Positions 997 through 63,160 of a stretch of 64,000 bases of DNA are shown piece after piece. Origin of the DNA: Clostridia bacterium. Lineage in GTDB: Bacteria; Bacillota; Clostridia; Christensenellales; Borkfalkiaceae. Within the stretch, counting starts at the first letter, position 1. Each line of letters begins with the position of its first letter. The stretch lies in contig CAAFMS010000013.1 in assembly GCA_900764105.1 (NCBI GenBank), positions 28,445 through 92,444 of the forward strand. The letters run 5' to 3'. The notes beneath the pieces were generated by a model, which was not told the origin of the DNA, did no database searches, and saw nothing but the letters and a program-made list of their open reading frames with translations. The translations under genes were made by a program, and so were the position numbers.

Positions 997-1173
997 CGGG
1001 ACGTCGAGGCGCCGTCCCCTACGGCAAACTTATTATATATTCATATTAAAGGATTTTTGTTGATAGCGTTTTGTTATTCGGCAATCTTCCTTTATTGAGT
1101 TATTTGTCGAAGAATTTAAATCGCGCAACTTTTTATCTTAAATAATCGTAGGGGACGGCGCCTCGACGTCCCG
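997..1173. mobile_element. MITE-like hairpin repeat, family A copy A1 (about 177 bp, AT-rich core between 27-bp inverted termini).
   Basis: Terminus cgggacgtcgaggcgccgtcccctacg at 997-1023 and its reverse complement at 1147-1173. The same termini recur at 11498-11673 and 41624-41833. Confidence 0.6.
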
Positions 1174-1259
1174 CTGTTTACGGCTACTTTTTATTTAGTC
1201 GCTAAGTAATAACAATAACTCGGCGTATAAGTCGATTAGCTCGCATTTTGTATAAATAA

Positions 1260-1305
1260 TGACCCCGATATTTTTACATTTGCAAAAATATCGGGGTTTT
1301 TCATT
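1260..1305 (+). terminator. Rho-independent terminator-like hairpin followed by a T-tract.
   Basis: Stem ccccgatattttt / aaaaatatcgggg (loop acatttgc) followed by tttttcatttttt. Confidence 0.5.
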
Positions 1306-1342
1306 TTTTAATCAGGTTCTGTCGTTGCTTTGTTTAAAAATG

Positions 1343-1531
1343 TTACGTTTCGTCGATTTTGTCTTTACAGACGTACTTTCCGCTTTTGTTGTGCGTTCTG
1401 ACGCATTCCGTGAGCAAATATTCGATCTGTCCGTTTAAAGACCTGAAATCGTTTTCAGCCCATTTCGTAAGTTCGGCGAACAGTTCTTCGCTTATTCTGA
1501 GCGGAACTTGCTTTTTCTTTCCGTCGCCCAT
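1343..1531 (-). CDS. Ribbon-helix-helix (CopG/Arc/MetJ-like) small DNA-binding protein.
   Basis: 62 aa; PLRISEELFAELTKWAENDFRSLNGQIEYLL resembles an RHH antitoxin/repressor fold. Its start overlaps the stop of the upstream SPFH gene, which suggests translational coupling. Confidence 0.5.
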   Translation of the reverse strand: MGDGKKKQVPLRISEELFAELTKWAENDFRSLNGQIEYLLTECVRTHNKSGKYVCKDKIDET

Positions 1532-1532
1532 C

Positions 1533-2561: not shown

Positions 2562-2670
2562 CGAATAATCCTCCGAAATTGTTTTGATATCATAATGATA
2601 TCATAAATTTCGGAGGATGTCAATAAAAATATGAAATTTTAAGAAATAAATTCTGATGTCTGAGGGTTGA

Positions 2671-4347: not shown

Positions 4348-5015
4348 ACTATTTTATAACCCACGCCGCGTATGGTTGCGATTTTCGCTCCCGAGTCGGC
4401 AATAATTTTTCTGAGCGTACCGACGTGAATGTCGAGAGTTCTCGTTTCGCCGTAGTTTTCGCCCCACACTTTATCTAAAATATCGTCTCTCGGCAATACT
4501 TTTTGAGGCTCGGAAACGAGCAGTTTTAAAAGTTCGTACTGTTTAAGCGTAAGTTCTTTGACCTTGCCGTTTATCGTTACCGTTCTTTCGTCGTCGTTTA
4601 TGGTTATTCCTTTATACGAAATCACGTTTGCGACGGGTGTGGACTTTCTTAACTTCGCCTTTATTCTCGCAATCAGTTCCAGAACGCCGAACGGCTTAGA
4701 GATGTAGTCGTCCGCGCCGAGGTCGAGACCCCTCACTTTGTCTATTTCGGTTGTTTTCGCAGATACCATAATGACGGGAACGTTCGCCGTCTTAGGGCTT
4801 GCTTTAAGCCTTGAAAGTATCTCGTATCCGTCCTCCCCGTCGAGCATAATATCGAGGATAATCAACCTCGGCAGGGACTTTTCGATTGCGATGAACAATT
4901 CTTCGCCGCATGAAAAGCACTCGGGGGTGAAGCCCGCGCTTATAAGAGCGTACCTGTATACTTCCCGAATAGAAGTTTCGTCGTCTACCGCGTAAATGAG
5001 AGTCTGGTTTTCCAT
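4344..5015 (-). CDS. phoP: OmpR-family response regulator, PhoP/PhoB-like.
   Basis: Receiver domain (LIYAVDDE...D) plus a winged-helix C-terminus. Start chosen at MENQTLIY, with GGAGAT 6 nt upstream; the ORF track extends to 5042. ATGA overlap with phoR. Confidence 0.8.
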   Translation of the reverse strand: MENQTLIYAVDDETSIREVYRYALISAGFTPECFSCGEELFIAIEKSLPRLIILDIMLDGEDGYEILSRLKASPKTANVPVIMVSAKTTEIDKVRGLDLGADDYISKPFGVLELIARIKAKLRKSTPVANVISYKGITINDDERTVTINGKVKELTLKQYELLKLLVSEPQKVLPRDDILDKVWGENYGETRTLDIHVGTLRKIIADSGAKIATIRGVGYKIV

Positions 5016-5068
5016 TTTAAATCTCCGTTCGGCAGCGAACAATTAAAACGCTTAAAGTTGCTGTCGAT

Positions 5069-5722
5069 TTATCCTATTTTATGATACCCCGTGGCGGCGT
5101 ACTCCGCCCATTCGCCGATGTTCACGGCGTGGTCGCCTATCCTTTCGAGGTATTTCGCTATCATCATAAACAAAATCGCCTGATCTGCGTTGGCGGAGTT
5201 TTGCTTTATCAGTTCGATAAGGTCGGTTTTTATCGTCTCGAACAATTCGTCCACCTTGTCGTCCCGTTTGTCAAGCCCTCTCGCCGTGTCGAGGTCTCTG
5301 TTTATATAACTTAAAACCCCGTCTTTTACCATACCTATGACGAGTTTTGCCATAAGTTCGATATGTTCGGGTTTTTTTATGAATTTCTCGCCCTTGAATT
5401 GCAGAGTAATCTCGCTTATGTCCGCCGCCTGATCGGCTATTCTTTCAAGGTCGGTTATCATTTTGAGCGCCGCCGAAACCTCTCTGAAATCGCCCGCGAC
5501 GGGGTGTTCGAGAAGCAGGATTTTCAAACAGTCCTGTTCTATTTCTCTTTCGAGTCCGTCCACGTTCTTATCGTCCGCCATAACTTCTTTCGCAAGGTCG
5601 GCGTTCTGCGTTTTCAAAGCGTTTATCGACTTTTCGATTGCGAGTTCCGCCTCGTGGCACATTTTTACGAGTTTGTTGAAAACGAGGTTCAGTTCGTTTT
5701 CGTACTTGTTTCTTATACTCAT
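5069..5722 (-). CDS. phoU: Phosphate transport system regulator PhoU.
   Basis: 217 aa with the duplicated PhoU helical-domain pattern. Sits between pstB and phoP. Confidence 0.8.
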   Translation of the reverse strand: MSIRNKYENELNLVFNKLVKMCHEAELAIEKSINALKTQNADLAKEVMADDKNVDGLEREIEQDCLKILLLEHPVAGDFREVSAALKMITDLERIADQAADISEITLQFKGEKFIKKPEHIELMAKLVIGMVKDGVLSYINRDLDTARGLDKRDDKVDELFETIKTDLIELIKQNSANADQAILFMMIAKYLERIGDHAVNIGEWAEYAATGYHKIG

Positions 5723-5790
5723 AGTATACCTTCTTTTTCTCCTTTTTTCAAGCGTTTGGATAAAGTTCCCTATTATTCTTATTCGGCGTA

Positions 5791-8408: not shown

Positions 8409-8412
8409 TTCT

Positions 8413-9402: not shown

Positions 9403-9484
9403 TTTACACCCTTATTATACCCCCGCCGAAAAAATTTAACAGTCCGAATTTCGTAAAACAAACGTAAAGTTTTCGTAAAGTCGA

Positions 9485-9513
9485 TTGATTAAATTCGCGA
9501 AAGGTTGTATAAT
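9485..9513 (+). promoter_or_regulatory. Sigma-A-type promoter for the polymerase gene; the transcript may be leaderless.
   Basis: ttgatt, 17 nt, then tataat. The -10 box lies inside the first codons of the annotated ORF. The second ATG at 9520 is then only about 7 nt downstream. Confidence 0.4.
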
Positions 9514-11450: not shown

Positions 11451-11497
11451 CGGAAATACGGGGCAATGAAAGCGGCGATATAGTATAAAGCGTTTTT

Positions 11498-11673
11498 CGG
11501 GACGTCGGGGCGCCGTCCCCTACGATTGTCGAAATAAAGTGTTTCTATTGATTATTTCCGACATATATTCAATCTTGATAAAATTGCCGACGATGAAAAT
11601 ACGAATAAAAGCAGGCTTTTTATTCAATCCGATGGTTGAGTTTTGCCGTAGGGGACGGCGCCCCGACATCCCG
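11498..11673. mobile_element. MITE-like repeat, family A copy A2.
   Basis: cgggacgtcggggcgccgtcccctacg at 11498-11524 and its reverse complement at 11647-11673, flanking an AT-rich core. Confidence 0.6.
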
Positions 11674-11696
11674 AAAAAAGCCTCTCATATATTTGC

Positions 11697-11890
11697 ATTT
11701 ATCCCCTATCGTCAAAATTTCGCTTACGCTCCATTTTGCCACTTCCCCCGAAGGAGGAAGCGACAAAGCGAGCGCTTCATATTGTAATACGTTATTTATG
11801 GTAAACACATAGAATTATTGCAAATCTAAGAGTTTAATTTCTGCTTCCTCCTTCGGGGGAAGTGGCGGCGTAGCCGACGATAGGGGATAA
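11697..11890. mobile_element. Family B hairpin repeat (rearranged copy B1), directly abutting A2.
   Basis: Contains ttatcccctatcg...gccacttcccccgaaggaggaagcg and, after about 75 bp, cttcctccttcgggggaagtggc...gataggggataaaa. Confidence 0.5.
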
Positions 11891-11928
11891 AAACGATTGA
11901 AAATGCGATTGGCTATTTATGTTTATTT

Positions 11929-12864: not shown

Positions 12865-12974
12865 TTCAGAGTTTCTCCGTTAAATTATACTCGAAATTTC
12901 TCGCGAATATGTATTTTAATCGTTTTCGTTGTCAATAATTTTCACGTCAAATAAACGATGAGACGGAGGAACTT

Positions 12975-13857: not shown

Positions 13858-13964
13858 GATTGCCAAAACGCCGAAAATATTTCGAAAGCGGAAAAGTTTT
13901 TCGCAGTTTCCGCGGCGGACGATAAAAAAATATAACTAATATATAAAAATTGCCGAATTTGAAT

Positions 13965-15867: not shown

Positions 15868-16070
15868 CGCTTCCTCCTTCGGGGGTAATTTCCTCCATTG
15901 AAGCGGAGAAAATATTTCAATATTCGCTTCCTCCTTCGGGGGAAGTGGGTTGACGGAATGAAATGGAAGTCAAGCCGATAGGGGATAAAATAAATGAGCG
16001 TTTGAATTGTCCCCTATCGTCGAAATCTCGCTTACGCTCTATTTTGCCACTTCCCCCGAAGGAGGAAGCG
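15868..16070. mobile_element. Family B hairpin repeat copy B2.
   Basis: Termini cgcttcctccttcgggggaagtgg and ccacttcccccgaaggaggaagcg with internal gataggggataa / ttgtcccctatc sub-palindromes. Confidence 0.6.
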
Positions 16071-16162
16071 AGGGGGTACAGTTGCAAATCTTCCGAATGA
16101 GAAAGCAAAGAAAAATATCTTACTTGACAGAGGTCGGAAAAGGTAAATTCTGTCGAAAACAG

Positions 16163-17946: not shown

Positions 17947-18468
17947 TTTCCACCGCCTTTTGACCGAGCGATAAAAGTCGCTTTTCGGCGGTTAGCCAGA
18001 GGTGATTGCGTCCGAACTCGGTCTTGCTTTGCGTTTTGGCGGGTTCAACACAATCGCCTGTGGCTTAGCCGCGTTAAATCAATCTTGGTCAGAAACTTCG
18101 ACGGAATATAACGCGGGAAATGCGTTTTCGGGAAGTTCGGGCGCGGAGCGTTGCGAAACGTCGTTGATAATTTTTCGCAAGTAATATTTTTCCGTAAATT
18201 CATCACCGCCTTTGGTCTATTTTTATCAGACGCGCGGTAATTATAACGCGGAATATTCAAAAATCAATACGCTTGTGAACGATTTTTCCTAAGTTTTTAA
18301 TCGGGCGTTTGACAGCCTGAACTTGCTTTTTTGTTTAGCATTATTGTAAAATACCGATTGTTTTCTTCTTTTAGAGGTTCTAAGTCGAATCACTCGCTTT
18401 TTTCTTCGGAAAAGTTAAAACTATATCCCCTTGCTACTTTTTTCGGGAGAATTGAAACGTTATTCCTT

Positions 18469-18614
18469 CGCTTCCTCCTTCGGGGGAAGTGGCAAAATCG
18501 AGCGTAGGCGAAATTTTGACGATAGGGGATAATTTAAAGGCTCGTTTATTCTATCCCCTATCGGTTTGACTTCCATTTTATTCCGTCAAACCACTTCCCC
18601 CGAAGGAGGAAGCG
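18469..18614. mobile_element. Family B hairpin repeat copy B3 (opposite orientation to B2).
   Basis: cgcttcctccttcgggggaagtggcaaaatcgagcgtaggcgaaattttgacgataggggataa ... tatcccctatcggtttgacttccattttattccgtcaaaccacttcccccgaaggaggaagcg. Confidence 0.65.
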
Positions 18615-18652
18615 AACGTTGTGATACTCTCCTTGCTCAGACGTCAATTTTA

Positions 18653-30396: not shown

Positions 30397-30517
30397 TAAC
30401 TATCTAATCTCGCATTTCCTTAATTGAAGCGGAGGAAATGTAGCGAAGCGACAAAAGAGGTTAGTAGTGGCGTTTTGCTTTGCAAGAGTTGTTTATCTAA
30501 AAGTAAATAGTAAAAAT

Positions 30518-30730
30518 CGCCTTCTCCTTCGGGGAAGGTGGCAAATTGAGCGGTTTTCCGCGAAGATTTGACGGAAGGGGACAATAAATCACTGCTTTTT
30601 ATTGGTTTGTGTTTTATCCCCTATCGGCTTGACTTCCATTTCATTCCGTCAACCCACTTCCTGCCTCTTTTGTCGCTTTGCGACATTTCCTCCGGTTCAA
30701 CGGAGGAATTTGCCCCCGAAGGAGGAAGCG
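30518..30730. mobile_element. Family B hairpin repeat copy B4 (variant arms plus an internal extra hairpin).
   Basis: cgccttctccttcggggaaggtggc ... tttatcccctatcggcttgacttccatttcattccgtcaacccacttcc ... cccgaaggaggaagcg. Confidence 0.6.
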
Positions 30731-33702: not shown

Positions 33703-33826
33703 AAAACGGAAAGGGTTTAAATACCGACGAAAGAATAGCGAAGCGACAGAGTATATATGCGGAACTGTCCGTATGTTCTCGCTTTCCCCTTTGAAGTTGA
33801 TTGTTTTGTTTATGTTTTATTTCTTG

Positions 33827-33967
33827 CCGTCACCTTCGGGGAAGGTGTCGCTGAAAGCGACGGAAGGGGACAATAAATCACTACTACATTTCGCTTTACA
33901 TTTTTATCCCCTATCGTCAAAATCTCGCTTACGCTCTATTTTGCCACTTCCCCCGAAGGAGGAAGCG
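33827..33967. mobile_element. Family B hairpin repeat copy B5.
   Basis: caccttcggggaaggtg ... ttatcccctatcgtcaaaatctcgcttacgctctattttgccacttcccccgaaggaggaagcg. Confidence 0.6.
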
Positions 33968-34152
33968 TTGTTTGCCGTTTTTACAATGTCTGCCGCTTTA
34001 ACGGAATGGGAAAGCGAGTCGGATAGTTGCGTTATAAAGCAAGCAATAGTTCAAAAATTCGTATCTATTTATAAAAGCCTCGGGCGGAATTTCCATTGAA
34101 ATTCCGCCCGAGGCTTTTGCTATGTGTTTTACTTTATTTTTTTCGCAATTTC

Positions 34153-41548: not shown

Positions 41549-41623
41549 TTTAAGTTAAAATTTTGAGACTATAAAAACAAGGTATCCGAAAAATCGGGTA
41601 TCTTGTTTTTTTTCGGGACGTCG

Positions 41624-41833
41624 GGGCGGGGTTTTGTTTTTTTGCGGTTTTTTCGGTGCGTCGAGGGCACCGTCCCCTATGGTAAAACTCGATATGTTTT
41701 TTATTGTAACAAAAAGATTGGGTTTAATTCCATTTTGTTTGCTTATTTACCACCGTCTACAAATTATTGTTTAAATTAGTCTATACAATATTTCATTTCT
41801 ACAATCGTAGGGGACGGCGCCCTCGACGTCCCG
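41624..41833. mobile_element. MITE-like repeat, family A copy A3 (the left terminus is interrupted by a 35-bp T-rich insertion).
   Basis: cgggacgtcggggcg[gggttttgtttttttgcggttttttcggtgcgtcgagg]gcaccgtcccctat on the left. cgtaggggacggcgccctcgacgtcccg at 41806-41833 on the right. Confidence 0.55.
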
Positions 41834-41989
41834 CCTTGGTATTTTATAATTCTTTTTTTGTTTATTACGAAACAAAATAATGTTGTGAAATATTACAACA
41901 GGCTTTAAAACGCTTTATTTTTTCATTTTAAAATGGTATACTGTCGTGGTCGAACGGGAATCGATGTTTCCCTCGACTAAGGTGAACGA

Positions 41990-43441
41990 ATGACAGAGAC
42001 AGTCGCTACGGAAAAATTAAATAAAAAAGACGTAAGGAGATTTACGGAAGGTTCGCTTTTTAAAAACATTCTGCTTTTCTCTCTGCCTTTGATGCTGTCT
42101 CAGGTCCTGCAGGTGCTTTTTAACATTTCCGACGTAATAATCGTAGGAAAAGGCACTCCGAATCCGACTATTCCCGTAGGAGCGGTCGGTTCTAACAGCA
42201 CTCTTTTAACGTTGTTTACGGGCTTTTTAATAGGTCTCGGCGCAGGGATAAACGTAAGGGTCGCTCAGTACCTCGGCGCGAAAAAGGAGGACGACGTAAA
42301 ATCGACCGTTTCCACTTCGCTCGTTCTGAGCGTTATTATGGGCTTAATCATATTCGCGGTGTGTTTTTTCTTTGCGGAAAATATACTTGTGATGCTCGAA
42401 ACAAAGTCCGAACTGTTAGACAAGGCGGTTATTTACCTTAAAATATACTCGTGCGGTATGCCTGCGATGGCGATATTCAACTACGGTAACGGCGTTTTAA
42501 GCGCGGCGGGGGATACTAAACGCCCCCTCGTTTATCTCACCGCGTCGGGCATAATGAATATCGGATTGAATTTCTTTTTCGTTCTCGTCTGCAAACTCGA
42601 CGTAGAGGGGGTTGCTCTTGCGAGTATTATCACGCAGTACGTTTCTGCCGTTCTCGTTATGGTAAGGATAATTACTATCAACGACGATTACAAACTCGAT
42701 TTCAAAAAGTTCGTATTCAGCGGCAAAAAAGCGGCGGAAGTTTTATATCTCGGAATACCCGCAGGGCTTCAGAACGCCATTTTCGCCATTGCGAATATTT
42801 TCATCCAGAAGTCGATAAACCATACTTTTCCGTATAAAGTGGTGACGGGCAACGGCGTTTCGCAGAACGTGGATTCTATAATATACAATACGATGATGGC
42901 GTTTTACACCGCTTGTTCCACGTTTATAGGTCAGAACTACGGCGCGGGCAAGAAAGACAGGGTGTTGAAGTCGTATTTCATATCCACGGGTTACGCTTTC
43001 GTCATAGGCTCGGTACTCGGCATATCGTCTTATATATTCGGTCGTCCGATACTGTCGCTTTTCGACCCCGACCCCGAAGTGGTCGCTGCCGGAATGGAAA
43101 AAATGAAAATTATGGGCGTATGTTACGGAATAGGCGCGTTTATGGACGCTTCGCTTGCCGCTTCGAGAGGACTCGGGAAGAGTCTTGCGCCGACGATTAT
43201 CGTAATAATGGGGTCGTGCGTGTTCCGTTTCGTTTGGCTGTACACGGTGTTCGCAAAATATCAGACGATACCGTCGCTGTATCTTCTGTATCCCGTTTCG
43301 TGGGTAATCACCGCGATTTTCGAGATAGCATACTTCTTTATGGCGTATAAAAAGTTGATGGAAAAACCGCAGCAGCCTCAGCCGCCTCAACCGATAACGG
43401 AAGAGGGGAAAACGCTCGGCGAAACAACGGTAAATAAATAA
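41990..43441 (+). CDS. MATE-family efflux transporter.
   Basis: 12 TM helices with a MATE/NorM-like duplicated architecture. 483 aa, with a PQQPQPPQP C-tail. Confidence 0.75.
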   Translation: MTETVATEKLNKKDVRRFTEGSLFKNILLFSLPLMLSQVLQVLFNISDVIIVGKGTPNPTIPVGAVGSNSTLLTLFTGFLIGLGAGINVRVAQYLGAKKEDDVKSTVSTSLVLSVIMGLIIFAVCFFFAENILVMLETKSELLDKAVIYLKIYSCGMPAMAIFNYGNGVLSAAGDTKRPLVYLTASGIMNIGLNFFFVLVCKLDVEGVALASIITQYVSAVLVMVRIITINDDYKLDFKKFVFSGKKAAEVLYLGIPAGLQNAIFAIANIFIQKSINHTFPYKVVTGNGVSQNVDSIIYNTMMAFYTACSTFIGQNYGAGKKDRVLKSYFISTGYAFVIGSVLGISSYIFGRPILSLFDPDPEVVAAGMEKMKIMGVCYGIGAFMDASLAASRGLGKSLAPTIIVIMGSCVFRFVWLYTVFAKYQTIPSLYLLYPVSWVITAIFEIAYFFMAYKKLMEKPQQPQPPQPITEEGKTLGETTVNK

Positions 43442-49446: not shown

Positions 49447-49532
49447 TTGATAAAAACGCTCCCTTTATGCAAGGGAGCGTTTTTACGGAAAAAGATAAAA
49501 TAATAAGTTTTAACAAAGGCGACGAACGAAGT

Positions 49533-49793
49533 ATGAAAAAAATAACTTTAAAAATCGACGGAATGAGATGCGGAATGTGCGAAACGCACGTCTGCGACTT
49601 TATAAGAAAGAATTTTAACGTAAAAAAAGTTACCGCTTCGCATTTAAAGGGCGAAGCGACGATAATCAGCGAATATCACATAGACGCAGAGCAGTTAAAA
49701 AACGTAATCGGCAGTACGGGGTATCGCGTATCGGACGTGACGGAAGAGGAATACGTTAAAAAAGGAATTCTCGGTTTATTCAAGAAAGACTGA
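49533..49793 (+). CDS. Heavy-metal-associated (HMA) domain protein.
   Basis: GMRCGMCETHV metal-binding MxCxxC motif. Start at MKKITLKIDG; the ORF track start at 49467 overlaps the upstream terminator. Confidence 0.65.
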   Translation: MKKITLKIDGMRCGMCETHVCDFIRKNFNVKKVTASHLKGEATIISEYHIDAEQLKNVIGSTGYRVSDVTEEEYVKKGILGLFKKD

Positions 49794-49839
49794 AAGACTG
49801 CTTAGCGGCGGGGCGGTTGGAGTCTTATCGGCAGACAAA

Positions 49840-49978
49840 ACCCGAAAGAGTATATGAACCCCGAAGGAGTTTATGAACCCCGAAAGAGTTTATAAATCCC
49901 GAATAAAACCCGAAAAGGGCAGATAAAACCCGAAAAAAAGTTCCCTCTTGACATTTTCGGGTTTGTCGGGTATACTGT
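49840..49978 (+). promoter_or_regulatory. Tandem direct repeats followed by a perfect consensus sigma-A promoter upstream of the protease gene.
   Basis: tatgaaccccgaaggagt / ttatgaaccccgaaagagt / ttataaatcccgaataaaa / cccgaaaagggcagataaaacccgaaaaaaag, then ttgaca-17-tatact (49949-49977). About 125-nt 5'UTR. Confidence 0.5.
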
Positions 49979-50105
49979 ATTTATTCGTCGGGCATATATA
50001 GTTGCTTTTCGGCGTCTCGGACTTTCGGTCTTACCGAATTTTCGGGCTTGGGTCTGAAAAGAGTCGTTTTTACGCTCGCAACCTGATTTTTATTTCGGAG
50101 AAAAT

Positions 50106-52130
50106 ATGAAAAAACGTAAAATTTCCCTATTCGCTTTATTTGCCGTTTTGTTTTCGGCAAGTTTGTTCGTTACCGTATCCTTCGCAAAGACGGCGGACGG
50201 AGAAAGTTATAAAACGCTTTCGTATAGAACCCTTCCCTCTTTGGAGGAAATCGTTTCGTTACCCGAGTATGATGGAAGAGATTACGGGATAATTACGCCC
50301 GTTAAAGATCAGGGATCGACGAATTTATGCTGGGCGTATTCGTCGATTGCGGCGTCGGAAGCGTCGATTGTCCGCTCGGGACTTAAACCGCTTGATGAAG
50401 TAAACCTGAATCCGACTGCCGCCGCATACAGAGTGAACAACCGAGGTAATGATCCGCTCGGCAATACAAGCGGAAATTACGTCTCGGGCGATTTTACGAC
50501 TTTCACGGGAAATCCGTCGAAAATCGCAACGATTTTTTCGGGGTGGTGGGGTCCCGTAAGCGGAGCGAACGCTACCGTCGATCCGTTTGAAAATTCCGAA
50601 TTTCGCCTCGAAAACGCCGTGCATATTCCCGAAAACAAGAACGACCCCGCTCTTCGCGTCGCCGAAATAAAAAAGGCGATTGCAAAGTACGGCGCAGTCA
50701 CTTTTCAGTATAACAATCGGAACAATATCTACTACTACAACCCGAAAAACGAAAAGAGCGGTTCGTCCTATCCTCACGCGTGCGCGATTGTCGGCTGGAA
50801 CGACAATATTCCTGCAGAGAATTTTGCTCCCGACGGCGCGACGATGAACGGCGGATGGCTTATCAAAAACAGTTATTCTGCGCTTCCCTCGGGATATCCG
50901 TATTTTTACATTTCTTACGACAATACGAGTTCGAGTATGTACGCCTTTTCCTACGCCGAAAGAAAAGCGTATGACAGAAATTATTATTACGACGGCGATA
51001 TAGACGATTTTCCTTTGCGAAACGACAAACACGTTGCAAACGTCTATCGGGCAGGGAGCGAAGTTTCGGGAAAAACCGAAAAAATAACCGCTGTAAACGT
51101 CGGAGTTGAGGGAAACGGCTACACCTTGGAAGCGGAAATATATACGGGGCTTTCCTCGCCGTTCGAAGCGGAAAACGCGCCCGTCGCAGGGGGAAAATCG
51201 GTCGCTAAAAAAACGATGAGTTTCGATTACGGCGGATACGTCACCATGCGACTCGACGAGCCTGTAAGCCTTTCCGCAGGCGAATGGTTTTCGGTCGTCG
51301 TTCGCGTTGTCGAGGGAAATGCGAAGATTCGCCTCGGGGTGAAAAACAGCAAGACACTTTCGTACGCCGGAAGTTACGGAAACTATGTAAAATTCGAGAA
51401 TTACGTCGGCAGAATCAAGGCGTTTACGACTTTTTACGAAACCGAAACGCACGTCCATTCTTTAAAGAAAATCGAAAAAAGAGCCGCGACTTGCGTTGCG
51501 GACGGAAATATCGAATACTACGTTTGCGAATCCTGCGGAAAACTCTTCTCGGACGGAGAGGGGGTAAAGGAAATAGATTATTCCGAAACCGTTATTCCGA
51601 AAGGACATTCGTTCGGCGAATGGATAGACGAAATCCCGCCCGATTCCGAGCGTGACGGAGTGAAAGGGCATAGAGATTGTTTGATTTGCGGAAAGCATTT
51701 TGACAGAGAAAACAACGAAATTGCCGACCTTACGATAAAAAAAGACCAAGAATCGTCGTCCGAAACCGAATCGGGATCGGACAAAACCGAAGAATCGGAA
51801 AGCGAGGACGGCTCGCAATCCGAATCTATGGCGGATACGGGCGAACCGCAAGAAAGCGAGTCCGATTTGACGAATTCGGAAGGGGAAGATAATATCGGCT
51901 CCGCATCGTCCGAAAGCAAGAGCGGTGAAGAATCGTCCTCGTCGGACGAGCAGAGCGGCAATTCCGTTTCCTCGGGGCAGAGCGGCAATTCCGTTTCTTC
52001 GGGCAATAATGGCGGCGAAGATAAAAACGAGAGTTCGTGTATGTCGGCATTATCCGCGGGAGCAACGCTATTCAACGCCGTAATTATCATTGCGGCAGTA
52101 TGCCTTTTAATAAAAAAGCGTCGGCAATAA
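50106..52130 (+). CDS. Secreted, membrane-anchored papain-like (C1 family) cysteine peptidase.
   Basis: Signal peptide, then a C1 active-site Cys motif QGSTNLCWAYSS. A later CxxC...CxxC Zn-ribbon-like module (CESCGK...CLICGK). An S/E-rich acidic linker. C-terminal TM helix LFNAVIIIAAVCLLIKKRRQ. 674 aa. Confidence 0.65.
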   Translation: MKKRKISLFALFAVLFSASLFVTVSFAKTADGESYKTLSYRTLPSLEEIVSLPEYDGRDYGIITPVKDQGSTNLCWAYSSIAASEASIVRSGLKPLDEVNLNPTAAAYRVNNRGNDPLGNTSGNYVSGDFTTFTGNPSKIATIFSGWWGPVSGANATVDPFENSEFRLENAVHIPENKNDPALRVAEIKKAIAKYGAVTFQYNNRNNIYYYNPKNEKSGSSYPHACAIVGWNDNIPAENFAPDGATMNGGWLIKNSYSALPSGYPYFYISYDNTSSSMYAFSYAERKAYDRNYYYDGDIDDFPLRNDKHVANVYRAGSEVSGKTEKITAVNVGVEGNGYTLEAEIYTGLSSPFEAENAPVAGGKSVAKKTMSFDYGGYVTMRLDEPVSLSAGEWFSVVVRVVEGNAKIRLGVKNSKTLSYAGSYGNYVKFENYVGRIKAFTTFYETETHVHSLKKIEKRAATCVADGNIEYYVCESCGKLFSDGEGVKEIDYSETVIPKGHSFGEWIDEIPPDSERDGVKGHRDCLICGKHFDRENNEIADLTIKKDQESSSETESGSDKTEESESEDGSQSESMADTGEPQESESDLTNSEGEDNIGSASSESKSGEESSSSDEQSGNSVSSGQSGNSVSSGNNGGEDKNESSCMSALSAGATLFNAVIIIAAVCLLIKKRRQ

Positions 52131-52240
52131 AATCAATATTTTTAATGCAATCGCCTGTGGCTACGGAAGTAATATTTTACTTGCAAAGTTATATTGCTAT
52201 CGCAGTTATATTTACCTTGCGGTAAGTGTTGAGCGAAGTC

Positions 52241-52268
52241 GTAGGGGACGGCGCCCCCGACGTCCCGC
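52241..52268. repeat. Solo family A terminus adjoining composite repeat C.
   Basis: gtaggggacggcgcccccgacgtcccgc. The preceding about 90 bp (52141-52240) is about 80% identical to 63071-63160. Confidence 0.5.
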
Positions 52269-52374
52269 TTTTCTCTGTTTACAACCCCGTTTACTATACG
52301 CGATTGTTTCTTCGAAGTAAAATAGTCGGAAAGCTTTATCTGCCGATTTGCTGCGGGGAAATTAAAATCACTCG

Positions 52375-52530
52375 CCTGAATATAAAAATATTGCTCATTA
52401 AAAAGCGAAAAAGTTGCTCACGAAGAAGTGAAAATATTGCTCACTAAAAAGCAGAAAAGTTGCTCACATAATAGCAAAAAATTTGTTCAAAAGCATTGAC
52501 AAATCGCAGACTGTGGTATATAATGTGGCT
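52375..52530 (+). promoter_or_regulatory. Tandem 40-bp direct repeats (TTGCTCA half-sites) plus a consensus promoter upstream of the HNH gene.
   Basis: aatattgctcattaaaaagcgaaaaagttgctcacgaaga and aatattgctcactaaaaagcagaaaagttgctcacataat, then a degenerate third copy, then ttgaca-17-tatataat (52496-52525). Confidence 0.45.
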
Positions 52531-52762
52531 ATTCACAAGCGATGGCGTATTTAACGCTATTTTATGATTTGTCGAGAATGGTAATAATTTTACAAGGCGG
52601 CGGAAAATTTAATTGCGATTAAGAAGAGTATAGAAAAGGAAGGCGGCGTCGCCCCTTCGGTTTTGTGCGTTATATGCGGACTATTAAACGCTGCGTACGT
52701 TCGTCCGGACGGCGTTTACGTTACGCCTGTTACCGCTCTTAAAGATTAACGGGGGTGCTTTT

Positions 52763-53593
52763 ATGATTTGGTTTTTTATCGCCGCAATATGTTTGATTTT
52801 CGTTGCGGTCGTTTTTATCGTTCTAAGAGAAAGAAAATACAAAAAATTTATTCTCGAAAACAGCGTAACTCTCGGTAAACTTCGCGAGGTCAACGATAAA
52901 TATTATTTCTTTAACCTTGTCAATTACGATATGAGTAATACCTATGATAATCAGGACTTCTATAACGATATAAGTTGTCGGGATTACCTCACGTACCAAC
53001 TTCAATTTAAGAAAAAAGAGATTTCGGAACAGATTTTCAAAGCGGAAAAGAACAGGGAAAATTATCGCAAATACAGAGACGAAATAAAGTCGATAAACAA
53101 AATAGGGACATTTCGCGACGATACGGGGAAACTAAATAAAGAAAAACTTATAAAAACGGAAAAGAAAATATGCAATAAAACCGCGCTTTCTCCGTCGCTC
53201 GATTATTCGGTAAAGGTAACGTTATATTGTTCTAAGATAAACGGAAGGAAATATGAGGGTAAAAGTCAAATATTTTCTTCCGACGATATACTTTTTATCA
53301 TATCGAAAGGGATAGACGATAAAATCGGTCAGTTCTATAAAAATAAGGACGTATGGGACTCTATATGTCGGGTTGAGCGTGGAAAAGTGTCTAACGCAAT
53401 GAGGTTTTCTATATATAAACGCGATGGTTATAGATGCCGAATGTGCGGAATTTCGGACAGGTTTGCAAATCTTGAAGTCGACCATATAATTCCGATTTCC
53501 AAAGGCGGGAAATCGACTTACGACAACCTGCAAACGTTGTGCCACAGGTGCAACGTACAGAAGGGCAATAGTATGCCGTATAAAAAACATTGA
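52763..53593 (+). CDS. Membrane-anchored HNH endonuclease-domain protein, AT-rich.
   Basis: N-terminal TM helix IWFFIAAICLIFVAVVFIVL. About 190 aa of unknown K/E-rich domain. C-terminal HNH motif RDGYRCRMCG...LEVDHIIPISKGG...DNLQTLCHRCNVQKG. Markedly lower GC than its neighbours. Confidence 0.65.
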   Translation: MIWFFIAAICLIFVAVVFIVLRERKYKKFILENSVTLGKLREVNDKYYFFNLVNYDMSNTYDNQDFYNDISCRDYLTYQLQFKKKEISEQIFKAEKNRENYRKYRDEIKSINKIGTFRDDTGKLNKEKLIKTEKKICNKTALSPSLDYSVKVTLYCSKINGRKYEGKSQIFSSDDILFIISKGIDDKIGQFYKNKDVWDSICRVERGKVSNAMRFSIYKRDGYRCRMCGISDRFANLEVDHIIPISKGGKSTYDNLQTLCHRCNVQKGNSMPYKKH

Positions 53594-53606
53594 CGATTTG
53601 AGAATA

Positions 53607-53682
53607 TAAAAGCGGCTGTAAAGGATATAGAGTAAGACGGCGGTTTTGCCGTTATGCCAAGTATCCTTTACAGCCGCTTTGG
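53607..53682. terminator. Long bidirectional terminator hairpin between the HNH gene and pgm.
   Basis: aaagcggctgtaaaggata ... tatcctttacagccgcttt (18-bp stem). Confidence 0.6.
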
Positions 53683-53711
53683 TTGTTTAGATTATTATTT
53701 ACTGAATTCCG

Positions 53712-55346
53712 TTATAAAGTCGTCGAAACGTAGGCGAGAAGGTCGTCTTTTAATTTCGCCGACTTTTCTTCCGTTTCCGCATTCGTCAATGCGTAAAATT
53801 TCAACTTCGGCTCCGTGCCGCTCGGTCTTACTACGAGTTCGAATCCGTCGCCTTTGTATTTCAGTACGTCGCTCTTCGGTAGTCCGTCTATTCCGAGGGA
53901 GTAGTCCTTTACGCTTTCGACCTTTCGTCCGAGTATCTCTTTCGGCGAATTGCTTCTAAGGTTTTTCATAAAGTCCGACATAAATATCATTCCTTGTTCG
54001 CCCTCGAAATACTTCGAGTAAAGCCCCGTCGAATAATATCCGAATTTTTCGTAAATATCGTTTAAAGCCTCGATTAAATCAAGTCCTTTTTCCTTATAGT
54101 AGCACACCGCTTCGACTATCGTCATTACCGCCGAAATCGAGTCTTTATCCCTCGCGTGAACGCCGACCAAGTAGCCGTAACTCTCTTCCATTCCGAACAG
54201 GAAATTCTCTTTTTTCGCCCTGTCTATCGTCTCGCCGATATACTTGAAACCCGTGAGTACGCTGTAAGTTTTTACGCCGAACGCCGCCGCGATTTTTTCG
54301 ATGAGCGGAGAAGATACGACCGTTTCGACAACGTAGGAATTTTTCGGGATTTCGCCTTTCGCCTTTCTCACGCTGAGAAGATAGTATTCCATAAGCGCGC
54401 CTGTTTCGTTGCCGTTGAACAGCCTGTACGAACCGTCCTTGTCTCTTACCGCAATGCCCATTCTGTCCGCGTCGGGGTCGGTTGCGATAACGAGTTCCGC
54501 CTTTTCCTTTTCGGCGAGTTCCAACGCCTTTTTCAAAGCGGCTTTTTCTTCGGGGTTCGGGAACGGGCAAGTGGTGAAGTTGCCGTCGGGGTTTTCCTGC
54601 TCGGGAACGACCGTGTAGTCCGTAATTCCCATTTTCGCGAGTATTTTTCTGACGGGAACAAGCCCCGTGCCGTTGAGCGGAGTATATATTATCTTCGGGG
54701 CGAATTTCTTGTCGAACGGCAGAGAATAGCCGTAAATCGTATCGATAAATTCATCGAGAATTTCGTCGCCCAAAACGTGTACGAGCGACGGGTTTTTATC
54801 GAATTTCTCGAAATAATCGTGTTTTTCGATTAAGTCGGTCACTTCGTTTGCGGCTTCGTCGGTGAGTTGACAGCCTTTATCGTTGTACGCTTTGTAACCG
54901 TTGTATTCCTTCGGGTTATGACTTGCCGTAATGACAAGTCCGCCTCCCACGCCGAGACTTCGAACGGCAAACGAGAGTACGGGGGTAGGGGTCAAGCGGT
55001 CGAAAACGTAAGCCGTAACGCCGAAAGAAGAAAGTACGTCAGCCGCTAAAAAAGCGAATTCTCTCGACATATTTCTGCTGTCGTAGGCTATGCACGCCGA
55101 TTTTTTGCCGTTTGCGATAAGATAATCTGCAAAGCCCATAGTCGCCCTGCCGACCGTGTAAACGTTCATACGGTTAGTTCCGACGCCGATTTTGCCGCGA
55201 AGTCCGCCCGTGCCGAATTTCAGTTCTTTGTAAAATCTGTCGTTGATTTCGTCCGCATTGTCTTTTATGCTTTCGAGCTCGGCTTTTAAAGGGTCGCCGT
55301 CAGGCAGTTTTTTAAGCCATAACGAGTATTTTTCATTCATAAACAT
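53712..55346 (-). CDS. pgm: Phosphoglucomutase/phosphomannomutase (alpha-D-phosphohexomutase).
   Basis: TASHNPKEYNGYK phosphoserine loop and GDPDADR metal loop. 544 aa. Confidence 0.85.
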   Translation of the reverse strand: MFMNEKYSLWLKKLPDGDPLKAELESIKDNADEINDRFYKELKFGTGGLRGKIGVGTNRMNVYTVGRATMGFADYLIANGKKSACIAYDSRNMSREFAFLAADVLSSFGVTAYVFDRLTPTPVLSFAVRSLGVGGGLVITASHNPKEYNGYKAYNDKGCQLTDEAANEVTDLIEKHDYFEKFDKNPSLVHVLGDEILDEFIDTIYGYSLPFDKKFAPKIIYTPLNGTGLVPVRKILAKMGITDYTVVPEQENPDGNFTTCPFPNPEEKAALKKALELAEKEKAELVIATDPDADRMGIAVRDKDGSYRLFNGNETGALMEYYLLSVRKAKGEIPKNSYVVETVVSSPLIEKIAAAFGVKTYSVLTGFKYIGETIDRAKKENFLFGMEESYGYLVGVHARDKDSISAVMTIVEAVCYYKEKGLDLIEALNDIYEKFGYYSTGLYSKYFEGEQGMIFMSDFMKNLRSNSPKEILGRKVESVKDYSLGIDGLPKSDVLKYKGDGFELVVRPSGTEPKLKFYALTNAETEEKSAKLKDDLLAYVSTTL

Positions 55347-55354
55347 ACACCTTT

Positions 55355-57006: not shown

Positions 57007-57027
57007 AAAAACTCCTGTAAAGTTTGT

Positions 57028-57534: not shown

Positions 57535-57537
57535 ATA

Positions 57538-60189: not shown

Positions 60190-60408
60190 TGTTTCTTTCG
60201 CTCGTTTTTCGTTGATATTAGAGAGAATCGTCTCGCATACGCAAAGATATATATTCTCTCATACTAAGTATAACATATAACCAAGCGAGTTGACAATAGT
60301 TTTTTCCTTTTTCGGGGAAAATTTTTGTGTGAAAGTTTTAGGGGATAGGAAATTTTGGTTGTAAAAAACGAGAATCTAATTTTAATTTAAGACGCAAACA
60401 GTTAACTA

Positions 60409-60569
60409 TGCTTTCTCCTTCGGGGAAAGTGGCTTGACGGAATGAAATGGAAGTCAAGACGATAGGGGATAAAAACGAAAATTTGTAAAAATCAGTGCTT
60501 TATTGTCCCCTTCCGTCAAATCTTCGCTGATAGCCGCTCGATTCGCCACCTTCCCCGAAGGAGAAGGCG
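60409..60569. mobile_element. Family B hairpin repeat copy B6.
   Basis: ctttctccttcggggaaagtggcttgacggaatgaaatggaagtcaagacgataggggataaaaa ... tttattgtccccttccgtcaaatcttcgctgatagccgctcgattcgccaccttccccgaaggagaaggcg. Confidence 0.6.
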
Positions 60570-60653
60570 AGGGATTTAATCGATAAGGTCGCATTTTTCG
60601 GGATATAGATGCGATTTTTTTACAGCCTCGAAACGTTCGGAATACGGAATATA

Positions 60654-62090
60654 TTATCGGCTGTTTTTGCGACCGCGTTTGATTTTGCGGTAAAGTCGCT
60701 CCTTGTCGATTGTAATGACCGATTTGCCGCCGTCCTTCTTTTCGGGCTTCGGTCTCGACATTATGAAATATCTCAGTTCGTCCAGACTGTGGTCGTCTAC
60801 CTTTTTCGGGACGTCGCCGTCCCCCCACCTGTAACGTTTTAACTCTCTTATCAGGTTAGTACATGTTTTGAAAATGTACAGTCTGTCGTTTTTTAAGTAT
60901 TCTTTTACCCTTGCTATGCCCGAAAATAAGTCCTTGTTTACTTTGGGATTTACTAAAATTCCGTAGTCGTAAAACAATTCGGTCACGCTCTTTAAGGACG
61001 ACAAAGTCTTTTGATTTGCCGCCGAGTCGATTAAGGCTCGTATACGCCCGTCGTTATCCCGTCGCCAGCCTATTTGGTCGCATTTTTTCTTTATCGCTTC
61101 GCTATGGTATTCCACGTCCTTCCCCGACTCGAAGTGTTCCGCCACGACGTAGACGGTGTCGTCGTAGTCCACGCAGTACCAGTGAGCCGACAACGGATTG
61201 TTAAGCCCCGGGTCTATCGAAATATTGTTCTGCCAGTCGAAAGGGAAGTCGAAAGGTTCGATAACGTGCTTGTTTTCGTCAAATTCGGGATAAACAAGCC
61301 CCGAACACGCCTTAAATTCGCCGTATCGCCTCGTCCTTAGTTCTTCCTCGCTCATAGACGAATCGAGTCCGTCGATTTCGTCTTTCGATAAAAACGGATT
61401 ATCCGCCCATTCGACGAATTCGCACCAGACCTCGTCGGAATTTCCGCTGTTTAAGTAAATCTCTTCATAGACGAAAGTCAGCCCTTTCAACGGGGTCATA
61501 GTGCCGAAAACGTCCCCTCTTTTGTCGATTACCCGCATAAGGCACTCTCTGTATACGTCCTCGGGCGGTTCTTCGTCGAACCAGACGTAATCGAGCGAAC
61601 TGCCTTGAAATTTCTCCCTGCCCTGATCGCAACTTTTAAAACCTATCGTCGATATTCCGCCGAACACGTTTTTGACCTTTATCTGATCGATTACGCCCCC
61701 CTCGGGGTCGCCGCGCTTACCTGAACTCATTACGACTTCCTTTATCCATTCCTTGGGCAGATATTTGAGGATTTTGCTCTGCGCGACGTCTCTTTGGACT
61801 TCTCGGGAGAGGGAAACGACCCATCCGAAAGTGTCTTTTCTGTTTTCCCTGTAAGGGTGAATACCCCTCGCCATATATACGGTTTCGACTGCGCCGCATT
61901 CGGTTTTACCGCTTCGGTTTCCGCCGAACACCCACCTGTTTCGTTTTTTGCATTTATGAAAAGCAACTTGCTTTTCGTGTGTTTTTGCGCCCGTGTTGTA
62001 GTTGTAAATAGGCAAACTTTTACGCCTTTCTATTTCCTCTTCCACGCGTTTTATAGCCTTTACGGTCTCTTCCGAGTTCATTTTCGACAC
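60654..62090 (-). CDS. Phage terminase large subunit (TerL), solitary.
   Basis: Walker A FGGNRSGKTE, Walker B DYVWFDEE, and a C-terminal RNaseH-like nuclease region. 478 aa. No portal, capsid, small-terminase or integrase genes nearby. Confidence 0.7.
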   Translation of the reverse strand: MSKMNSEETVKAIKRVEEEIERRKSLPIYNYNTGAKTHEKQVAFHKCKKRNRWVFGGNRSGKTECGAVETVYMARGIHPYRENRKDTFGWVVSLSREVQRDVAQSKILKYLPKEWIKEVVMSSGKRGDPEGGVIDQIKVKNVFGGISTIGFKSCDQGREKFQGSSLDYVWFDEEPPEDVYRECLMRVIDKRGDVFGTMTPLKGLTFVYEEIYLNSGNSDEVWCEFVEWADNPFLSKDEIDGLDSSMSEEELRTRRYGEFKACSGLVYPEFDENKHVIEPFDFPFDWQNNISIDPGLNNPLSAHWYCVDYDDTVYVVAEHFESGKDVEYHSEAIKKKCDQIGWRRDNDGRIRALIDSAANQKTLSSLKSVTELFYDYGILVNPKVNKDLFSGIARVKEYLKNDRLYIFKTCTNLIRELKRYRWGDGDVPKKVDDHSLDELRYFIMSRPKPEKKDGGKSVITIDKERLYRKIKRGRKNSR

Positions 62091-62156
62091 AATCTCCTTT
62101 TTTACGAAATTTATTTATGTTTTTTTCGGTAGTAGCGAAGTTATAATTATCGTACT

Positions 62157-62930
62157 ATGAAAAAACTCGTTATTTCACTTTTTACCATATTGTCCGTTAT
62201 CGTTACGGGACTTTTCGTCGCGTTCGGTTCCGCCCAAAAAAAATTCGCCGTTGCCGCAGAGGAAAGGTACTCCCGAGTGCTTGGCGAAAACGTGGTTTTA
62301 TATATGGACTCGTCTATGACGATGCCGTGGTTTACTCTTCCGTACAGTTATTACGTCAAGGTTATAAGCGTTAGCGGAACGGCGGCGAAGGTGGAATATC
62401 GCGGCGGCGGTTCGAAGCCGTCGGCTAAGGGGTACATAGACGTTTCGGAACTTAATATCGTCGAGGAAACGCCGTCCGTGATTTTTCCCAATCTCACTTT
62501 AACGGTCAATCAGAACTGTATGCTGTATAAAGACACCGACTTCACGATAGCCGAAACTGTAACGCAAAACAGTACTGCGGACTTCTACGGAATACTCGTT
62601 CGCCCGAACGGGGAAAAGTTTATTTATTCGCTCGTAACCACGACCTCGGGAGACAAATACGTGGGCTATATGTCGATTAACGCCGTTTCTGAGTTTACAA
62701 TACCTGTTTTGAAAGTGGAGGCGGAAACGCCCGACGAAAGCCTTTCGGGGGAGTCCGATTCGGGTAAAGACGACGCCGCAAAAACGGGCAACGGACTACA
62801 ACTCGCAATTATCATAGCGGTGTCGGCGGTTGCGATTTCCATAGTATACTTATTATTTCGCCCGTCGGGCAAGGGCAGAGCGAAAGACGAAGCGATAACC
62901 TCGAACGAGTTTGACGACAACGACTACTGA
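62157..62930 (+). CDS. Membrane-anchored secreted protein of unknown function.
   Basis: N-terminal signal/TM plus a C-terminal TM (LQLAIIIAVSAVAISIVYLLF) with an acidic tail. A terminator-like hairpin at 62978-63005. Confidence 0.45.
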   Translation: MKKLVISLFTILSVIVTGLFVAFGSAQKKFAVAAEERYSRVLGENVVLYMDSSMTMPWFTLPYSYYVKVISVSGTAAKVEYRGGGSKPSAKGYIDVSELNIVEETPSVIFPNLTLTVNQNCMLYKDTDFTIAETVTQNSTADFYGILVRPNGEKFIYSLVTTTSGDKYVGYMSINAVSEFTIPVLKVEAETPDESLSGESDSGKDDAAKTGNGLQLAIIIAVSAVAISIVYLLFRPSGKGRAKDEAITSNEFDDNDY

Positions 62931-63040
62931 AAAGTCAGCGACGGCAAAAACCGCGACGACAAAAATTAACCTTCCTTGCTCTCCCCAAAGGGGAAAGCAA
63001 GATGATTAGTTTTTAAATGTCGGCAAGTTGTTTTGCAGGC

Positions 63041-63160
63041 GTAGGGGACGACGCCCTCGGCGTCCCGTGAAACGGGAGTTATATTTTGCTTCGCAAAGTT
63101 AAATTGCCTGTCGCGGTTATATTTGCCTTGCGGCAAGTGATATTACGCTTCGCGTAGTTG
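63041..63160. repeat. Solo family A terminus plus composite repeat C (paralogue of 52141-52268).
   Basis: gtaggggacgacgccctcggcgtcccgtg, then gttatattttgcttcgcaaagttaaattgcctgtcgcggttatatttgccttgcggcaagtg. Confidence 0.5.

Follow-up and report, generated by a model that had tools for sequence, protein, structure and literature searches.

We analyzed a 64,000-nucleotide stretch of DNA from a Clostridia bacterium (GenBank assembly GCA_900764105.1, contig CAAFMS010000013.1, positions 28,445 to 92,444; hereafter the window, numbered from its first letter), in which a short palindromic sequence recurs between genes. Taken as a whole, the observations are best explained by a family of GTAG-type repetitive extragenic palindromes (REPs) with a likely partner in subclass 2.4 of the tyrosine transposases associated with REPs (RAYTs), an explanation that we consider quite probable. 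The repeat belongs to a known REP system and is not a new kind of transposon; what is new is its host range, in the Oscillospirales of gut and rumen, a group missing from the REP surveys examined, and the breadth over which one 27-nt REP is conserved. An earlier note on this DNA had read the copies either as miniature inverted-repeat transposable elements (MITEs) or as a structured repeat resembling REPs or bacterial interspersed mosaic elements (BIMEs). It is the second of these that is supported, given the GTAG-footed palindrome, its occurrence as singles, in pairs of all orientations and in tandem mosaics, its presence in at least 104 assemblies, and its location inside RAYT genes.

The strand opposite to the terminus as first described reads C-GTAG-GGGACG-G-CG-(loop)-CG-A-CGTCCC-G. 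The unit is about 28 nt long: behind a 5′ (C/T)GTAG foot stands a stem of 6 bp and then 2 bp, separated by one purine-purine mismatch and closed by a loop of 3 to 4 nt; one extra loop base in some copies gives 28 nt instead of 27. It is by this layout, an imperfect palindrome with the tetranucleotide GTAG at its 5′ foot, that GTAG-type REPs are defined (PMC2817692; PMC3733652). Folded as single-stranded DNA (ssDNA), the GTAG strand forms 6 bp, a G.A mismatch and 2 bp, with a free energy of −9.0 to −9.7 kcal/mol, in agreement with the earlier statement that each terminus is itself a hairpin. The foot reads GT[AG]G in all eight copies of the window, in one of them as CTAT/ATAG. Among 203 copies of 27 nt it is 97 to 100% conserved, a figure biased by the search pattern; an unbiased sample came from loci retrieved by another pattern, and there 18 of the 20 hairpins identified by their stem alone bear a GTAG/CTAC foot.

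The eight copies were located by scanning the window. The 27-mer CGGGACGTCGGGGCGCCGTCCCCTACG, with at most one mismatch, was found at 997 (+), 1147 (−), 11498 (+) and 11647 (−), where shuffles expect none. The 14-nt core GGCGCCGTCCCCTA, with up to two mismatches, occurs at 1008, 1149, 11509, 11649, 41666, 41808, 52242 and 63042, that is, at eight sites against 0.32 expected, and these sites form three inverted pairs and two singles. As had been claimed, all eight copies in the 64 kb are intergenic, and most lie past terminators or between convergent genes. REP copies are generally found 3′ of genes and between convergent genes (PMC3733652). A known RNA family was rejected, since an Rfam scan of the whole window at gathering thresholds, on both strands, gave no matches.

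Next, the distribution of the repeat was followed with a pattern scan of one genome per species. The REP was found in at least 120 stretches from at least 104 assemblies, the latter number being that of distinct accession prefixes among the listed loci, and the termini are thus not confined to the window. Carriers among the matches listed are Ruminococcus flavefaciens, other Ruminococcus, Oscillospiraceae, Acutalibacteraceae, Monoglobus and unclassified Clostridia, from gut and rumen. The listed loci hold 238 oriented copies, and neighbors stand 9 to more than 1000 nt apart, in each of the four possible relative orientations: adjacent pairs are direct in 30 and 19 cases, have GTAG outside in 29 and have GTAG inside in 16. 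Tandem mosaics with periods of 63, 68 and 109 bp were seen in loci L012, L048 and L020. Conservation is limited to about 28 nt, with none beyond it among 243 oriented copies. The copies avoid coding sequence: stretches that run for 150 codons or more without a stop hold 35% of the copies in the listed loci of other genomes, but 80% of random positions. No match to the repeat was found in a plasmid collection, and a phage collection gave just one REP-sized match of 31 nt. The REP pattern of the type seen here (T1, see below) was also observed in 35 putatively viral or proviral contigs of IMG/VR (L134-L168), with up to seven copies in the 4.3-kb contig L166. Searches of the available literature for the sequence itself, or for REPs in Ruminococcus or Clostridia, found nothing relevant, and Di Nocera 2013 makes no mention of Clostridia or Firmicutes (PMC3733652).

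The link to a RAYT comes from related genomes. A motif scan of all fetched loci yielded two open reading frames (ORFs) with the H-x-H, WQ and Y-I-x-N-N-P signatures, at 209-838 (−) in locus L058 and at 5141-5752 (+) in locus L085. Both match the NCBIfam model REP_Tyr_transpos (NF047646, "REP-associated tyrosine transposase") with E values of 2.5e-19 and 1.7e-14, and the L058 protein can be aligned, through its HUH and Tyr motifs, with 4ER8, the structure of E. coli TnpA-REP (E=5.4e-5). When the REP-coded peptides were masked, tblastn identified RAYT homologues in 7 of the 120 listed loci and none in the window. The RAYT family has 1427 homologues at E<=1e-5, some of which are named "REP element-mobilizing transposase RayT" by JGI. 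In an alignment of 24 homologues, H85, W133, Q134, Y154, I155, N158 and P159 are invariant, and H87 is conserved in at least 90%.

The REP itself lies twice inside the RAYT genes of related genomes, inverted and in frame. Ahead of the HUH strand stands GTAGGGGACGGCGTCCTCGACGTCCC, translated as VGDGVLDVP, and behind the strand stands its reverse complement, translated as GTSRTPSPT; in general form, the in-frame REP peptides are VGDGxLDVP and GTSRxPSPT. Across the 24 aligned homologues the peptides vary together, each pair being the translations of a sequence and of its reverse complement: VGDGVLDVP occurs with GTSRTPSPT, VGNAALGVP with GTPRAAFPT, and VGEAALGLP with GRPRAASPT. The first site holds additional tandem hairpins in some RAYT proteins. 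The autonomous partner for which the earlier note suggested a search, a full-length element with the same termini, was not encountered: no insertion sequence (IS) with these ends was seen, and the REP is embedded in RAYT genes instead.

Three hairpin types were distinguished. Type T1 has the arms GGGACGGCG / CGACGTCCC and the G.A mismatch, while T2 (arms GGAACGCCG / CGGCGTTCC) and T3 (arms GGGAGGCCG / CGGCCTCCC) each have a perfect 9-bp stem. All three carry a YCCT loop, so that the stem changes between types are compensatory. T2 and T3 likewise lie in frame within RAYT genes, and the types differ by RAYT lineage. T2 is dispersed too, with 153 copies in 120 metagenome stretches, of which just two stand beside a RAYT, flanking the gene; in this locus (L172) the two T2 REPs flank the RAYT gene and are not inside it. 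"Double-foot" T2 REPs (GTAG-hairpin-CTAC) were observed in four copies, in loci L196, L198 and L239.

Subclass 2.4, which corresponds to Bertels group 4 (PMC5581495), is uniquely characterized by NH[IFV]H, WQ and YIxNNP, by long and double-foot REPs and by REPs in frame in tnpA-REP (PMC6006769), a description that the RAYTs of the related genomes match. In-frame REPs having already been described for this subclass, the intragenic REPs reported here are not new. In related genomes the RAYT is single-copy and lies in a housekeeping operon, and the partner of the window's REPs is most likely a single-copy RAYT gene that this genome would carry as well.

The housekeeping operon in question is a replication operon close to the origin. 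In Ruminococcus the RAYT lies between remB and gyrB, in the order dnaA-dnaN-S4-recF-remB-RAYT-gyrB-x-gyrA, with gaps of 1 to 13 nt to its neighbors; in a distant Eubacteriales metagenome-assembled genome it lies between recF and remB (dnaN-recF-RAYT-remB-gyrB). The origin-operon RAYT genes are those of L127-L133 (10001-10531), L058 (209-727) and L075 (6432-6929). A search of the available literature for RAYT with gyrB or recF found no report, and this placement may be new.

The REPs of this genome occur as singles, as tail-to-tail doublets and as BIME-like [module-REP] mosaics, and a doublet with its spacer of 122 to 124 nt can fold as one long hairpin in ssDNA. In the mechanism that we propose, the partner would be an HUH tyrosine endonuclease of the RAYT/TnpA-REP kind, from subclass 2.4 (Bertels group 4). 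By analogy with characterized TnpA-REP, such an enzyme would bind the folded GTAG strand on ssDNA, guided by the GTAG foot and perhaps recognizing the mismatch in the stem (4ER8; PMC3479197; PMC8266576). By cutting and rejoining beside the hairpin, it could give rise to new copies, inversions, deletions and arrays without target-site duplications. The REP architecture, its distribution, its place in RAYT genes with co-varying hairpin types and the rearrangements between strains rest on observation, whereas we infer the presence of a RAYT in this genome, its action on these particular copies and any effect on the host.

The three inverted pairs of the window, called here A1, A2 and A3, were confirmed by sequence matching at 997-1173, 11498-11673 and 41653-41833. 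A1 lies between the convergent der and SPFH genes. Its left REP (997-1023, −) is a short-loop variant of 27 nt, the minus strand of which reads 5′-CGTAG-hairpin; the spacer (1024-1146) has 123 nt, a GC content of 0.26, no ORF and the inner ends GCAAAC.. and ..AATAAT; and the right REP (1147-1173, +) is complementary to 997-1023 at 27 of 27 positions. A2 is inverted relative to A1 and A3 and has a small ORF, 3′ of a DinB-like (IMS) gene, on one side and a convergent gene on the other. Its left REP (11498-11524, −) is the exact consensus, its spacer (11525-11646) has 122 nt and a GC content of 0.31, and its right REP (11647-11673, +) has one mismatch, giving a GGGATG stem; the A2 arms are complementary at 26 of 27 positions. 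Through flanking T5/A6 runs these arms are lengthened to 35 nt with 94% complementarity (11490-11681).

A3 occupies the intergenic region of an RsgI-like gene and a MatE gene. Its left end is a degenerate REP (41653-41681, −; CGGTGCGTCGAGGGCACCGTCCCCTATG) with two mismatches to the search pattern, which permits C or T at the position preceding the last base. The spacer (41682-41805) has 124 nt and a GC content of 0.24, and the right REP (41806-41833, +) is a 28-nt variant, GTAGGGGACGGCGCCCTCGACGTCCCG, which is the in-frame form and would read VGDGALDVP. Upstream of the left REP lies a truncated REP 5′ half, CGGGACGTCGGGGCG (41614-41628, −), a partial duplication. Here the earlier note has to be corrected. 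It had A3 start at 41624, a position that falls within the truncated half, and it described a 35-bp insertion in the left terminus; what is present is the REP half, about 24 nt of filler and a complete degenerate REP, and the supposed insertion is therefore better read as a partial duplication, of about 40 bp, of the REP 5′ half. Likewise, the three copies do have inverted termini as described, but these are perfect in A1 only. The AT-rich core between the termini was correctly recognized, with the three spacers having a GC content of 0.24 to 0.31, and so was the lack of an encoded transposase, as there is no ORF in any of the three spacers and no transposase homologue within the window.

The two single REPs are associated with a different conserved sequence, module C, also as first described. 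Module C has about 77 nt at 52163-52239 (+), with three short hairpin-like sub-repeats and 90% identity to the 109-bp tandem unit of the sister strain L020; its second copy, at 63068-63152 (+), ends in a REP truncated just past the foot (CGTAG at 63153-63157). The two copies are homologous to each other and to the sister-strain tandem unit. Module C precedes the REP at 52240 (52240-52267, +), a 28-nt variant on its 3′ side, and follows the REP at 63040 (63040-63067, +), which has swapped mismatch bases (GGGACG-A-CG..CG-G-CGTCCC); both sites are segments of one periodic [module-REP] unit. One of the single REPs lies 3′ of a lectin/peptidase-like gene and the other between two convergent genes. 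A 1.4-kb segment (52268-53667), absent from L020, sits exactly at a REP/module junction; it carries an HNH endonuclease gene (52763-53593) and four or five 23-bp tandem repeats (52385-52499, ..TTGCTCAC..).

The GTAG feet of the pairs face inward, and the doublets are therefore tail-to-tail in Di Nocera's terms. Global alignment gives the three doublets a common polarity (A1+ = A2− = A3+). The spacer alignments are weak but significant, with z of about 5.4 against shuffles for A1/A2− and A2−/A3+; BLAST found no match between spacers and none to any of the 120 listed loci. Divergence between spacers is about 45%, against 96 to 100% identity of the REP ends. One inner end of the doublets reads CTACGGCAAAAC and the other (A/C)AAT-CGTAG, and three further doublets of the same species align alike, making six in the species. 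In its full length, A1 forms a single long hairpin (−47.8 kcal/mol, z = −9.6) in which one REP pairs with the other. These doublets are a real and old arrangement in this lineage, resembling REP doublets forming hairpins (REPINs). The spacer drifts whereas the REP stays constant, and it is the single REP that is conserved across species. Two other possibilities were considered and rejected. Spacers as fragments of a RAYT gene found no support in masked-peptide tblastn, which gave no match in the window. A RAYT between REP pairs was dismissed as well, since the ORFs enclosed by pairs 280 to 1600 bp apart are ordinary housekeeping genes (DegV-, Mrp-, DapA-, MazF-, GNAT- and MntP-like, judged by inspection of the translations alone).

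Sister strains, fetched via the window's proteins and about 97% identical, differ at the REP sites. L123 has flanks about 97% identical to those of A1 and no A1; in the window, A1 sits between two diverged direct copies of a segment of about 100 bp, so that the state in L123 looks like a recombinational deletion. At the A1 site L124 has a different repeat, and the A2 intergenic region is entirely different in both strains. L020, 97% identical to window positions 49529-55207, carries the 109-bp [module C + REP] unit four times in tandem, together with a full doublet; at the equivalent site the window has one unit, in the opposite orientation, and the 1.4-kb segment with the HNH gene. Furthermore, L125 has a full doublet (4752-5000), and the window's own scaffold, past the end of the window (L126, 4967-4987), has a footless single hairpin, CGGGACGTCGAGGCGCCGTCCCG. 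The breakpoints fall in the CGTCCC arms, and a tail-to-tail dimer that had lost its middle would look like this; for double-foot REPs, Quentin et al. put forward the same argument in mirror image (PMC6006769). We also observed that the right REP of the L125 doublet is split by a terminator-like insert of about 40 nt in its loop. At REP sites, then, strains about 97% identical have gained or lost copies, inverted them or amplified them in tandem, which shows ongoing turnover.

Several observations weigh against a REP/RAYT system as we describe it. The one clean gain or loss, that of L125/L126, has its breakpoints within a direct repeat of 6 nt, and the junction lacks CT, the cleavage site of the TnpA-REP enzymes studied so far (PMC8266576). 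Excision or insertion by a RAYT would fit, but with this CGTCCC repeat and no CT, replication slippage fits at least as well, and we dropped the assignment of this gain or loss to a RAYT. No doublet is conserved across species, and divergence is far greater in the spacers than in the REPs. The doublets thus do not clearly behave as units of replication, as the REPIN model, in which the inverted REP doublet replicates, expects (PMC3116915). A motif scan and masked tblastn, applied to the window and to about 8 kb and 10 kb past its two ends, found no RAYT homologue. The two RAYT proteins score 69.6 and 53.9 bits with NF047646, below its curated cut-off of 80, and with Pfam Y1_Tnp one of them reaches 22.9 against a cut-off of 23.0 and the other has no match; the match to the family model is split because of the in-frame REP inserts. 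The 20-kb loci around the origin-operon RAYTs lack extragenic REPs, unlike a classical REPtron, and co-variation was therefore tested through the T2 metagenome scan instead. Finally, no activity of a subclass 2.4 enzyme was found in the literature examined.

A more novel reading, which we regard as unlikely, is a host-integrated, non-selfish REP/RAYT system. Here the RAYT would be fixed in the origin-proximal operon of Ruminococcus and at least one other lineage of the order, with an inverted pair of its own recognition hairpin, nearly unchanged over more than 100 species, in frame around its catalytic HUH segment; the intragenic hairpins would be self-recognition or autoregulatory sites that lock protein and motif together, and the dispersed copies would serve replication or topology, through gyrase or fork-associated processing at gene ends.

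Also unlikely are hairpins selected by the host for structural or regulatory roles and no longer mobile, such as stabilizers or attenuators at mRNA 3′ ends, sites for gyrase or nucleoid proteins, or parts of promoters, with the link to RAYT being historical. Their extreme conservation over at least 104 species-level genomes, while the spacers drift, speaks for this reading, as does the location of RAYT genes in a dnaN-recF-gyrB operon. E. coli REPs bind gyrase. The preference for positions 3′ of genes and between convergent genes, as for REPs generally (PMC3733652), also agrees with such roles. Moreover, a promoter-like match upstream of MatE takes its -35-like hexamer from the right REP of A3: the match at 41823-41850 (TCGACG, 16 nt, TATAAT; 10/12) lies 140 nt upstream of the MatE start at 41990, and its TCGACG is inside the REP. 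The hairpin at 41578-41612 upstream of A3 is terminator-like by eye and is not called by a consensus terminator scan. However, the copies have both orientations relative to flanking genes, which argues against one RNA-level role, and A1 lies between the terminator-like hairpins of both neighboring transcription units, partly judged by eye, so that it may be little transcribed. The turnover between strains at about 97% identity and the empty Rfam scan also speak against fixed host hairpins. A host role of this kind is compatible with the REP/RAYT explanation and not exclusive of it.

A classical MITE, that is, a deletion derivative of a DDE-type IS with 27-bp terminal inverted repeats, mobilized in trans by a full-length copy, was suggested by the three units, which are nearly equal in length (177, 176 and about 181 bp), have ends that are inverted, enclose AT-rich DNA that codes for nothing and have a common polarity; the species has six such doublets. 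Nevertheless, no target-site duplication was found at the copies of the window, the flanks differ at every copy, and the T5/A6 flanks of A2 extend the inverted repeat and do not form a direct repeat. The supposed terminal repeats are independent units that also occur single, in direct pairs, head-to-head and in tandem arrays; nothing outside their 28 nt is shared, the diverged interiors stand against nearly identical ends, and the same sequence sits in frame in RAYT genes. There is no plasmid match, and the phage collection holds just the REP-sized one. Three defining features of a classical MITE are missing here, which contradicts it, and we give this part of the earlier interpretation hardly any credence.

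Fainter still is the chance of palindrome-associated (PATE-like) elements derived from IS200/IS605 and mobilized by an ordinary IS200-type TnpA, not by a RAYT. The chemistry and logic would be the same, with subterminal hairpins and no target-site duplications, and IS200-type genes of subclass 1.1 are common in Clostridia (PMC6006769). The two ends of such an IS, however, carry unlike hairpins, both on one strand and neither with a GTAG foot, whereas here a single hairpin type, with the foot in 18 of 20, is found inverted or in any other arrangement; in addition, the carrier proteins show the RAYT signatures WQ and YIxNNP, match the RAYT model and are single-copy in a housekeeping operon. Finally, an array repeat like that of clustered regularly interspaced short palindromic repeats (CRISPR), or a structured noncoding RNA family, has a negligible probability despite the stable hairpin and the regular 63- to 68-bp spacing in two loci that had raised the suspicion of a CRISPR mini-array, because what lies between the repeats recurs as well, cas genes were not seen, the copies of the window are inverted, and Rfam is empty over the whole window.

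Other repeats and genes of the window were noted along the way. A second, unrelated intergenic repeat family consists of GCTTCCTCCTTCGGGGGAAGTGG-type hairpins beside a CGATAGGGGATAAAA motif, often as inverted pairs 98 nt apart, at 11698-11896, 15908-16117, 18422-18631, 30504-30661, 33811-33980 and 60395-60481; it is a member of this family that occupies the A1 site in L124. The 13-mer TATAAGTCGATTA, with at most one mismatch, has 12 copies in the window against 0.12 expected, 10 of them on the plus strand (938, 1226, 12656, 21327, 29452, 35421, 39168, 45267, 57508 and 62667) and two on the minus strand (19360 and 32689). It is nearly confined to the loci of this species, stands on both sides of A1 and also occurs in the spacer of the L125 doublet. 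A lone gene similar to a terminase large subunit (60654-62090, −; Pfam Terminase_6N/6C) has no other phage genes evident nearby. Inside the 3′ part of this terminase-like ORF, a short hairpin without the GTAG foot, GGGACGTCGCCGTCCC (60808-60823), may be a remnant of a REP or may be due to chance.

Studies of REPs and RAYTs have been carried out almost entirely in Proteobacteria, and the present family extends them to the abundant, poorly cultured Oscillospirales of gut and rumen, where intergenic regions of at least 104 species-level genomes bear the same 27-nt hairpin. In these metagenome-assembled genomes the family accounts for a class of assembly breakpoints and of intergenic regions that are hypervariable, and the REP is a simple sequence tag for strain typing. 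For annotation, short ORFs with VGDGxLDVP or GTSRxPSPT may be translated REPs. A RAYT that carries its own REP is a tractable case for the co-evolution of a domesticated HUH enzyme and its DNA target, and its position between recF and gyrB in some lineages raises the question of whether REPs serve the replication machinery.

Compared with known systems, the partner shares with RAYT subclass 2.4 the signatures [ND]H[VIL]H, WQ and YIxNNP, a length of about 175 to 195 amino acids and in-frame REPs, as well as a variable insertion region after the HUH strand and double-foot REPs, represented here by T2 (PMC6006769); differing from the description of that subclass, one REP stands here on each side of the HUH motif, as an inverted pair. 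With E. coli TnpA-REP (4ER8) there is a homologous core, about 25% identical, and the REP-coded segment of the proteins described here aligns to a gap. The E. coli enzyme needs GTAG plus a bulge (PDB 4ER8; PMC3479197; PMC8266576), and the GTAG foot and stem mismatch of the present REP are the same kind of feature. As in REPINs, two inverted REPs fold to one long hairpin, target-site duplications are lacking, and the RAYT partner is presumed to be single-copy and vertically inherited (PMC3116915); unlike in REPINs, the spacer is much longer and diverges between copies while the REPs stay identical, and singles and direct pairs are as common as inverted pairs. With GTAG-type REPs and BIMEs at large, the family has in common the imperfect palindrome of 20 to 40 nt, the 5′ GTAG foot and, as far as the window and the listed loci show, many extragenic copies (PMC2817692; PMC3733652), together with the range of arrangements, from singles through head-head, tail-tail and head-tail dimers to mosaic clusters, and occasional in-frame genic copies. 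It differs from described REP dimers in the long AT-rich spacers of its doublets. Those REPs and BIMEs are known from E. coli, Pseudomonas and Stenotrophomonas, whereas the hosts here are Clostridia (Oscillospirales and relatives), and while usual REP families span a species or a genus, one 27-nt sequence is common here to at least 104 species-level genomes.

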